Origin: a virus
Taxonomy: Duplodnaviria > Heunggongvirae > Uroviricota > Caudoviricetes
Virus record (IMG/VR): IMGVR_UViG_3300044675_001501
Span: 64,001-128,000 of that record
DNA: 64,000 nt
Reading direction: 5' to 3' (one strand)
Below are positions 58,108 to 58,315 of the stretch, piece by piece (the first letter of the stretch is position 1; every line of letters starts with the position of its first letter). The notes below the pieces were generated by a model, which ran no database searches, was not told the origin of the DNA, and worked only from the letters and a program-made list of their open reading frames with translations. The position numbers and the translations under genes are program-made.

Positions 58108-58149
58108 CCAAAACAAAAAACCCTCGAAGACTTTCATCATCGAGGGTTT
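58108..58149 (-). terminator. Intrinsic (attenuator) terminator
   Basis: AAACCCTCGA-N12-TCGAGGGTTT followed by TTTGTTTT. Confidence 0.88.
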
Positions 58150-58171
58150 GGAATTCTAGTAACCTGTTACG

Positions 58172-58279
58172 TTACATTTTCAAACCCTCAGCTGAATCTC
58201 TACGTGATGCATTCCAGCTACCTGTAAGATTAAAAATCTCAGGCTGGCAATAAAAGGAATGTAACTGTATCGATTTCAT
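58172..58279 (-). CDS. Leaderless 35-aa leader peptide
   Basis: MKSIQLHSFYCQPEIFNLTGSWNASRRDSAEGLKM*; ATG 7 nt after TATAAT; the 3' end is complementary to the terminator 5' arm. Confidence 0.7.
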   Translation of the reverse strand: MKSIQLHSFYCQPEIFNLTGSWNASRRDSAEGLKM

Positions 58280-58286
58280 AGAAGTA

Positions 58287-58315
58287 ATTATAGTCCAGGT
58301 TAAAATTAAAAGCAA
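58287..58315 (-). promoter_or_regulatory. sigma70-type promoter of the leader peptide
   Basis: TTGCTT-17-TATAAT. Confidence 0.75.

Follow-up and report, generated by a model that had tools for sequence, protein, structure and literature searches.

The stretch of DNA analysed here, called the window below, is 64,000 nucleotides (nt) long and corresponds to positions 64001-128000 of a whole viral genome of 169.5 kilobases (kb) (G000; IMG/VR record IMGVR_UViG_3300044675_001501, Caudoviricetes). A T4-type RNase H gene is found among the genes neighbouring the locus of interest, which places the phage among the T4 relatives; it is an uncultured lake phage of this group. On the minus strand the window carries a cluster of 25 transfer RNA (tRNA) genes (53075-58033, detected with ARAGORN), the first of which is tRNA-Trp(CCA), starting at 58033. 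In front of the cluster lies a short leader region, which contains a promoter, a 35-codon open reading frame (ORF), two competing hairpins and a second promoter. This leader region, a putative transcription attenuator for viral tRNA genes, is the subject of this report. Positions are those of the window, the features described lie on the minus strand, and all sequence statements were rechecked on that strand.

The leader promoter P1 (58287-58315) consists of TTGCTT (58315-58310), a spacer of 17 nt and TATAAT (58292-58287). The relatives described below keep its hexamers, and the spacer varies. P1 was missed by a consensus promoter scan because its -35 hexamer matches just three of the six consensus positions, and its class, TTGC(C/T)TTTAA ... 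TATAAT, recurs at seven other sites of the genome. The predicted leaderless ORF (58172-58279) starts with an ATG (58279-58277) 7 nt past the -10 box and has 35 sense codons and a TAA stop (58174-58172). Codons 31-33 contain arm 2, the 5' strand of a predicted antiterminator, with the sequence (U)GAGGGUUUG (58181-58190, GAGGGUUUG itself being 58189-58181). GAGGGUUUG exactly complements CAAACCCUC (58150-58142), which lies in arm 3 (58140-58150). Arm 3 reads C-AAACCCUCGA, or CAAACCCUCGA as a whole, and is the 3' strand of the antiterminator and the 5' strand of the terminator in one; the complement between the frame end and this terminator arm extends over 9-10 base pairs (bp). Above it, an apical stem (58159-58175) is formed by GUAAC (58175-58171), which contains the UAA stop, and GUUAC (58163-58159). 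This stem was paired in 100% of alignment cells across 10 variants, with loops of varying length and sequence. Arm 4, UCGAGGGUUU (58127-58118), and the U tract behind it (together 58110-58127) complete an intrinsic terminator, in which AAACCCUCGA (58149-58140) pairs with UCGAGGGUUU in a G+C-rich stem of 10 bp topped by a 3-bp apical stem and followed by the U run. A second, near-consensus promoter P2 (58076-58104; TTGACA, 17 nt, TATGAT) lies between the terminator and tRNA-Trp.

Most of these elements had been pointed out in an earlier sequence-only reading of the window. Its layout of P1 and the ATG was borne out on the minus strand, and the terminator, the exact complement and the inner GUAAC/GUUAC stem lie where it had placed them. 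Its description of a 35-codon ORF with 19 of the 20 amino acids, Val alone being absent, and with several synonymous codons for Ser, Leu, Ile and Arg was also correct. The promoter past the terminator, which it had raised as a caveat, is real and present in all relatives.

Relatives of the locus were collected through the flanking gene for a 96-amino-acid (aa) protein, which gave seven IMG/VR contigs and 13 protein clusters with 52-98% identity, whose contigs were retrieved. Further relatives came from a leader profile run on loci collected through the DUF6433 neighbour gene, from a pattern anchored on the two arms, and from inspection of one more locus, which gave lineage D. Altogether 24 distinct leader peptides were obtained, which fall into four diverged lineages. 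Lineage A, which includes the window, has 9 versions of 34-36 codons with 18-19 amino-acid kinds. Lineage B has 3 versions (42-43 codons, 20 kinds), lineage C 11 versions (37-42 codons, 20 kinds) and lineage D a single version (35 codons, 19 kinds). The sequence-only reading had proposed to look for the same diverse-codon peptide and hairpins ahead of other phage tRNA clusters, and these 24 versions in four lineages are such cases. Wherever downstream sequence was available, a same-strand tRNA cluster directly followed the module. As far as the available sequence reached, the cluster comprised 1-31 tRNA genes in lineage C and 10-16 in lineage B; lineage D showed two. The association persisted although the genomic position varied and the cluster began with a Trp, a Gln or a Thr tRNA; lineage C has the module about 2.6 kb farther from the DUF6433 gene. 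The leader profile matched 3 of 73 more distant DUF6433 loci, most of which have no nearby tRNA cluster. Two of these matches precede tRNA genes, a single tRNA in one case and a large cluster in the other; the third is cut off by the end of its contig. Lineage D is a singleton (L085 3680-3925, = L130), in which two detected tRNAs (Thr, Pro) follow the leader before the contig ends.

The leader frame was clearly conserved as a frame. It was open in 22 of the 22 variants tallied, and frames 2 and 3 held 1-6 stops each. In frame-blind nucleotide alignments all 18 gap blocks (5 in lineage A, 1 in B and 12 in C) were multiples of three. The nucleotides were conserved as well: synonymous divergence was 0.05-0.33 in the leader versus 0.52-0.80 in the neighbouring gene of the same genome pairs. 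Non-synonymous divergence was about equal in the two, and the changes in the leader were evenly spread over the three codon positions. Such a double constraint, in which both the frame and the nucleotides are kept, is the expectation for an attenuator leader.

The leader carries no Shine-Dalgarno sequence. Its ATG begins 6-7 nt after the -10 box in the variants, and 10 nt after it in part of lineage C. Of the 38 promoter-like sites in the genome, 12 have an ATG at +6/+7 of the -10 box, where 1.3 would be expected (9-fold, p = 2.5e-9). The spacing was sharply peaked at +6, and several of these ATGs start ORFs of 48-238 codons. Leaderless messenger RNAs (mRNAs) appear, from these sites, to be a routine mode of expression in this phage. 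The genome-wide enrichment removed the main objection to translation of the leader, and the comparative evidence suggested that this short ORF near its promoter is translated, as the leader of an attenuator would be. Examples of sites of the leaderless type are found at 52891-52919, 29772-29800 and 26646-26674. The phage also has genes led by a GGAG Shine-Dalgarno sequence.

Folding calculations and covariation were then considered for the two competing hairpins. The duplex of the terminator 5' arm with upstream RNA had an energy of -16.1 kcal/mol, versus -7.3 ± 1.9 kcal/mol in dinucleotide shuffles, and none of 500 shuffles reached the native value. The fold of the leader region in the window had a z-score of -3.0. 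When the transcript was cut before arm 4, the antiterminator was the minimum-energy fold in 21 of the 21 variants tested. Calculated hairpin energies were -15 to -27 kcal/mol for the antiterminator and -15.5 to -21 kcal/mol for the terminator, so that the antiterminator is predicted to be at least as stable as the terminator. For the terminator, 100% of cells were paired and two pairs showed compensatory changes, which none of 500 shuffles equalled. For the antiterminator, 94% of cells were paired (28-56% in slid controls) and three pairs were changed on both sides, which was equalled by 4 of 500 shuffles.

Individual variants showed how the two helices changed together. In L028 and L033 the terminator arms changed from CUCGA/UCGAG to CUCUG/CAGAG, and the Ala codon of the leader changed synonymously from GCU to GCA, lengthening the antiterminator to match. 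Both lineage B and lineage C have a longer A run in arm 3 that is matched by a longer U run in arm 2, together with an added CC/GG extension used by the antiterminator only. Lineage D has the same design made from unrelated arms, GGGCUUUGU and ACAAAGCCC, with the terminator AAAGCCCGG/CCGGGCUUU. The sequence-only reading had named a lack of the arm complementarity in homologues as grounds for its refutation; the complementarity was kept, covaried and was rebuilt with other sequences in lineage D. The reading of the complement as chance, or as an insulator only, was ruled out by the covariation of the competing helix.

The stop codon holds a constant place in this structure. It lies in the apical stem of the antiterminator and begins 7 nt past the core of arm 2, or 13 nt past it in lineage B; in lineage D it abuts arm 2. 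In a model with a ribosome footprint of 28 nt, ribosomes with codons 2 to about 27 in the A site left the antiterminator as the best fold, and ribosomes on the last eight or so codons or on the stop abolished it.

Taken from this comparative evidence, the element is probably a ribosome-operated transcription attenuator, a general sensor of translation speed, that heads the phage tRNA cluster. RNA made from P1 would start at or beside the AUG and give a leaderless message. In the nascent RNA, the frame end (arm 2 and the stop-bearing GUAAC) would pair with arm 3 before the 3' arm of the terminator exists. Because the antiterminator would form first and is predicted to be at least as stable as the terminator, read-through would be the default, and if no ribosome arrived in time, RNA polymerase would continue into the tRNA genes. 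Only a ribosome that kept pace through the 35 codons would, on the last codons or the stop, cover arm 2 and leave arm 3 free; the terminator would then form, and a transcript of about 166 nt would be released. Any decoding delay at codons 2 to about 27 would then raise transcription from P1 into the tRNAs. This read-through zone contains 17 amino-acid kinds in the leader of the window and 16-19 in its relatives. The transcription start, the actual translation, the termination efficiencies and the natural cause of ribosome slowing are what we infer in this scheme. Of the interpretation given by the sequence-only reading, the attenuator architecture was upheld by the 24 homologues through frame conservation, covariation and the constant stop geometry. 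Its universal sensing is suggestive only, and its statement that the cluster covers all 20 amino acids was wrong: ARAGORN found no tRNA-Tyr in the whole 169.5-kb genome, and the tRNA set covers 19 amino acids.

The region behind the terminator also bears on this proposal. The P2 hexamers are conserved in all relatives, and L025 and L026 of lineage B carry two such promoters. As P2 is kept in every relative, the switch can only add to a basal transcription. Two hairpins of the sense strand, GGGA/UCCC and ACUGCUAU/AUAGCAGU, were found at 58070-58109; their loops or upper stems include the two hexamers of P2 (-35 and -10). In these hairpins 95.8% of cells were paired and six pairs were changed on both sides, a covariation score that none of 500 shuffles reached; the G.U pairs are on the sense strand. 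They stand in the same place in L003, L005, L006, L024, L028, L030 and L035, and a conserved UUCGUUCYUUAAAAAU follows. Since these hairpins form only in RNA that extends past the terminator, they speak for the existence and importance of read-through transcripts. A processing site and a weak second terminator are among their possible roles. In lineage B, an extra element, consisting of a promoter and a hairpin RNA of about 60 nt, lies between the attenuator terminator and tRNA-Trp (L025 3572-3760, the same in L026, and L027 3553-3680). In L025 and L026 a third promoter comes after it.

Several observations weigh against the attenuator. P2 would transcribe the cluster independently of the switch, and the dynamic range of the switch may be small. 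The minimum-energy fold of the full-length window RNA contains the terminator and pairs arm 2 with the distant codons 5-9, and in the folding models the untranslated default is ambiguous in some variants. The leader has no run of regulatory codons, its 35 codons being of 27 different types for 19 amino-acid kinds, and single codons respond weakly in classical attenuators. Finally, peptide blocks are conserved (such as G-W, R-P-x-F, A-I-E, G-G-F-G-K in lineage C) and the ratio of non-synonymous to synonymous change (pN/pS) was 0.2-1.06 in lineages B and C, which leaves room for a function of the peptide.

Known attenuators offer a comparison for most parts of the proposed attenuator. The enterobacterial amino-acid operons are controlled by leader-peptide attenuators such as trpL, hisL, leuL, thrL, ilvL and pheL. 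As in attenuators of the trpL/hisL type, a short ORF follows directly on the promoter, and the 5' arm of the terminator has an alternative pairing partner farther upstream; this partner is covered once a ribosome has reached the ORF end, which leads to termination, and an earlier hold-up leads to read-through. Unlike these leaders, the phage leader has no run of codons for a single amino acid and contains 18-20 kinds, mostly once or twice each. Its message is leaderless and without a Shine-Dalgarno sequence, it would control viral tRNAs rather than biosynthetic enzymes, and a second promoter follows its terminator. A clear conserved 1:2 "protector" pairing is also absent from the phage leader, and the untranslated state therefore probably reads through. 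In an Rfam scan of 57900-58500 with E values up to 10, the best matches were His_leader (RF00514; 23.1 bits versus a threshold of 49, E = 0.17) and L10_leader (18.9 versus 44), and none was better.

Attenuation of a component of the translation apparatus is itself known. The pheM leader attenuates the E. coli pheST operon for an aminoacyl-tRNA synthetase and, as proposed for the phage leader, senses decoding speed; unlike the phage leader, it senses Phe codons only and controls host protein-coding genes. T-box riboswitches likewise couple tRNA charging to terminator read-through before translation-related genes, but they bind uncharged tRNA directly and need no ribosome. The same Rfam scan of 57900-58500 gave no T-box match at E values up to 10, and a specifier loop or T-box motif was not found. 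The closest systems in logic are translation-stress leaders of the bmrB type, which are general sensors and not specific for a single amino acid (PMC4191407). In Bacillus subtilis, bmrB stands before bmrCD and has a leader ORF, alternative stem-loops and an intrinsic terminator; ribosomes slowed by ribosome-targeting antibiotics cause read-through, and rare codons in the leader affect the termination decision (PMC4191407). It differs from the phage leader in being a host gene with a Shine-Dalgarno-led leader that controls a drug exporter, and compositional completeness has not been reported for it. In full-text literature searches, no account was found of phage tRNA genes being controlled by attenuation.

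Other explanations of the same module were weighed against a ribosome-operated attenuator. The module could be a stand-alone early gene for a micro-protein of 35 residues with its own promoter and terminator, the tRNAs being driven by P2 alone; the complement between frame end and terminator would then serve the small mRNA itself, for instance in the structure of its 3' end, in its stability or in the termination of its translation. In favour of this, the frame shows clear signs of selection, peptide blocks are kept within lineages, many small leaderless ORFs stand behind similar promoters in this phage, and P2 is conserved. We nevertheless consider a gene of this kind unlikely. The synonymous sites of the leader are 2-10 times more conserved than those of the neighbouring gene, pN/pS reaches about 1 between lineages, and the peptide has no match in Pfam or PHROGs. 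The helix in competition with the terminator shows covariation and was rebuilt from different sequences in lineage D, and the module was found in front of tRNA clusters only. With an antiterminator predicted to be as stable as the terminator, termination would moreover depend on the ribosome whatever the role of the peptide. An autogenous feedback sensor, with a leader written in the codons of the downstream tRNAs and transcription falling once the phage tRNAs accumulate, seems quite improbable to us. AUA and AGA codons are present in most versions, and phage tRNAs with UAU and UCU anticodons are encoded. However, the phage tRNA set covers 29 of 34 leader codons against 25.8 expected from ordinary genes (p = 0.14), the leader has a Tyr codon for which no tRNA-Tyr gene was found, and four other clusters gave p values of 0.30-0.66, in a comparison whose power is low with nearly complete sets of 24-31 tRNAs. 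Little likelihood at all is left for a reading in which P1 and the terminator delimit a gene for a non-coding small RNA of about 166 nt with an incidental frame, like the stable RNAs that accompany the T4 tRNA genes. Nucleotide conservation similar to that of the tRNAs and the fold z-score speak for it, and attenuator-derived RNAs are able to act in trans (PMC6614838). The multiples of three in all gap blocks, the open frame beside closed ones, and the fixed place of start and stop relative to the promoter and arm 2 speak against it, and a trans role of the terminated leader would come on top of translation. A small RNA as the only function was ruled out by the frame conservation.

A narrower version of the attenuator reading, taken up from the sequence-only reading, concerns what the ribosome would sense. 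The leader could be a sampler of all amino acids, selected to contain every codon family, such that the phage would switch on its near-complete tRNA set whenever one tRNA, whichever it is, was depleted; the depletion could be caused by host anticodon nucleases or by decay of host tRNAs after shut-off. We regard this as possible but rather doubtful. In all 24 versions, 18-20 kinds are found within 34-43 codons, with all 20 in 14 of the 14 versions of lineages B and C and 19 in lineage D. Under an independent and identically distributed model with the composition of the phage, 19 or more kinds in 35 residues had a probability of 0.006-0.011, and 20 kinds in 42-43 residues one of 0.002-0.005. Among the 334 small ATG ORFs in the six frames of the genome, no more than two reached 19 kinds. 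With about 20% identical residues between lineages, the trait is kept in each (probability given the common residues, 0.002-0.06 per comparison). Gln and Tyr shift position among variants and are never lost, and single-copy residues changed less than repeated ones (7 of 50 versus 48 of 172, p = 0.03). Phage tRNAs are also documented to counter tRNA-cleaving antiviral defences (PMC10264068, PMC11555353, PMC11464382). Against these points, retention within lineages beyond positional conservation was not significant (combined p 0.3-0.57), and completeness could therefore be inherited and held by ordinary positional conservation. The modelled read-through zone holds 16-19 kinds and always leaves Asp outside, Val is absent from most lineage A versions, and lineage B has no internal Met. 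The leader contains a Tyr codon and the phage has no detected tRNA-Tyr, no enrichment was found for codons that the phage tRNAs read (p 0.14-0.97), and the observation was made post hoc. Our proposal of an omnivalent attenuator, in which a compositionally complete frame would let a shortage of almost any charged tRNA raise transcription of a near-complete viral tRNA set, is accordingly put forward as tentative. Host shut-off or tRNA-cleaving defence nucleases could bring about such a shortage; that defence nucleases trigger the switch is pure conjecture from published work on phage tRNAs.

The attenuator reading would matter in several ways. Why phages carry large tRNA sets and how these are controlled is an old question, which is now tied to tRNA-cleaving defences (PMC10264068, PMC11555353, PMC11464382). 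If the leader is a ribosome-operated attenuator, the phage matches its supply of tRNAs to a measured decoding capacity, and tRNA genes join amino-acid operons as targets of classical attenuation. If the omnivalent form is also true, the phage monitors the decoding capacity of its host and replaces it on demand. The family is a natural set of variants, with four lineages, fixed geometry, covarying arms and 18-20 kinds, for tests and as a search pattern in other phages. The sequences further suggest that leaderless mRNAs, as a routine mode of expression, extend to this group of uncultured T4-related lake phages.

The distribution of the element was also searched more widely. In the GenBank phage collection, a DNA search with the window leader and a lineage C leader returned only a tRNA-Trp fragment, and the element was not found in any cultured phage of that collection; by RNase H, Methylophilales phage Melnitz comes nearest (43%). 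The leader peptide gave no match to Pfam or PHROGs, and the 42-aa peptide of lineage B matched itself alone in a large protein index. Scanned for the exact pattern of the invariant core, IMG/VR and the JGI metagenomes yielded only the close relatives and at least one chance match (L021). A profile search from the alignment of the 96-aa gene added zero new loci, and a pattern scan for additional lineage D members gave the same contig again and chance matches. In one freshwater metatranscriptome, assembled contigs of a relative cover 58159-58292 (the leader) and 57804-58125 (the terminator into the first tRNAs); these contigs show neither RNA ends nor strand, and no listed contig bridges 58125-58159.

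Two further hairpins were found near the leader. A small hairpin, AGCAAG-N8-CUUGCU with a U-rich run (58311-58330), is also present in the lineage A relatives, where it is invariant and so carries no covariation evidence. It likely terminates the gene for the 96-aa protein upstream, and the -35 hexamer of P1 overlaps its 3' arm. Inside the ORF, an internal hairpin domain (58210-58261), in which CAUUCC/GGAAUG encloses smaller stems, was predicted in every lineage A variant; both strands are invariant and covariation gives no proof. It may be a pause or folding element.

The tRNA cluster contains two protein genes, for a 2OG-Fe(II) oxygenase-family protein and an HNH endonuclease (Pfam), at 53604-54167 and 55136-55690 on the minus strand. 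At 57186-57280 (minus strand) lies a tRNA of 95 nt with a type II shape, a long variable arm, the anticodon UAU and an encoded CCA, which ARAGORN called tRNA-Ile. This tRNA is kept in the lineage A relatives, in a phage for which no tRNA-Tyr gene was found genome-wide. Farther away, at 30363-30752 (minus strand), ARAGORN called a permuted two-piece transfer-messenger RNA (tmRNA) with the tag ANEEVYALAA. Together, the tmRNA and 26 tRNAs point to a phage that invests heavily in sustaining translation.

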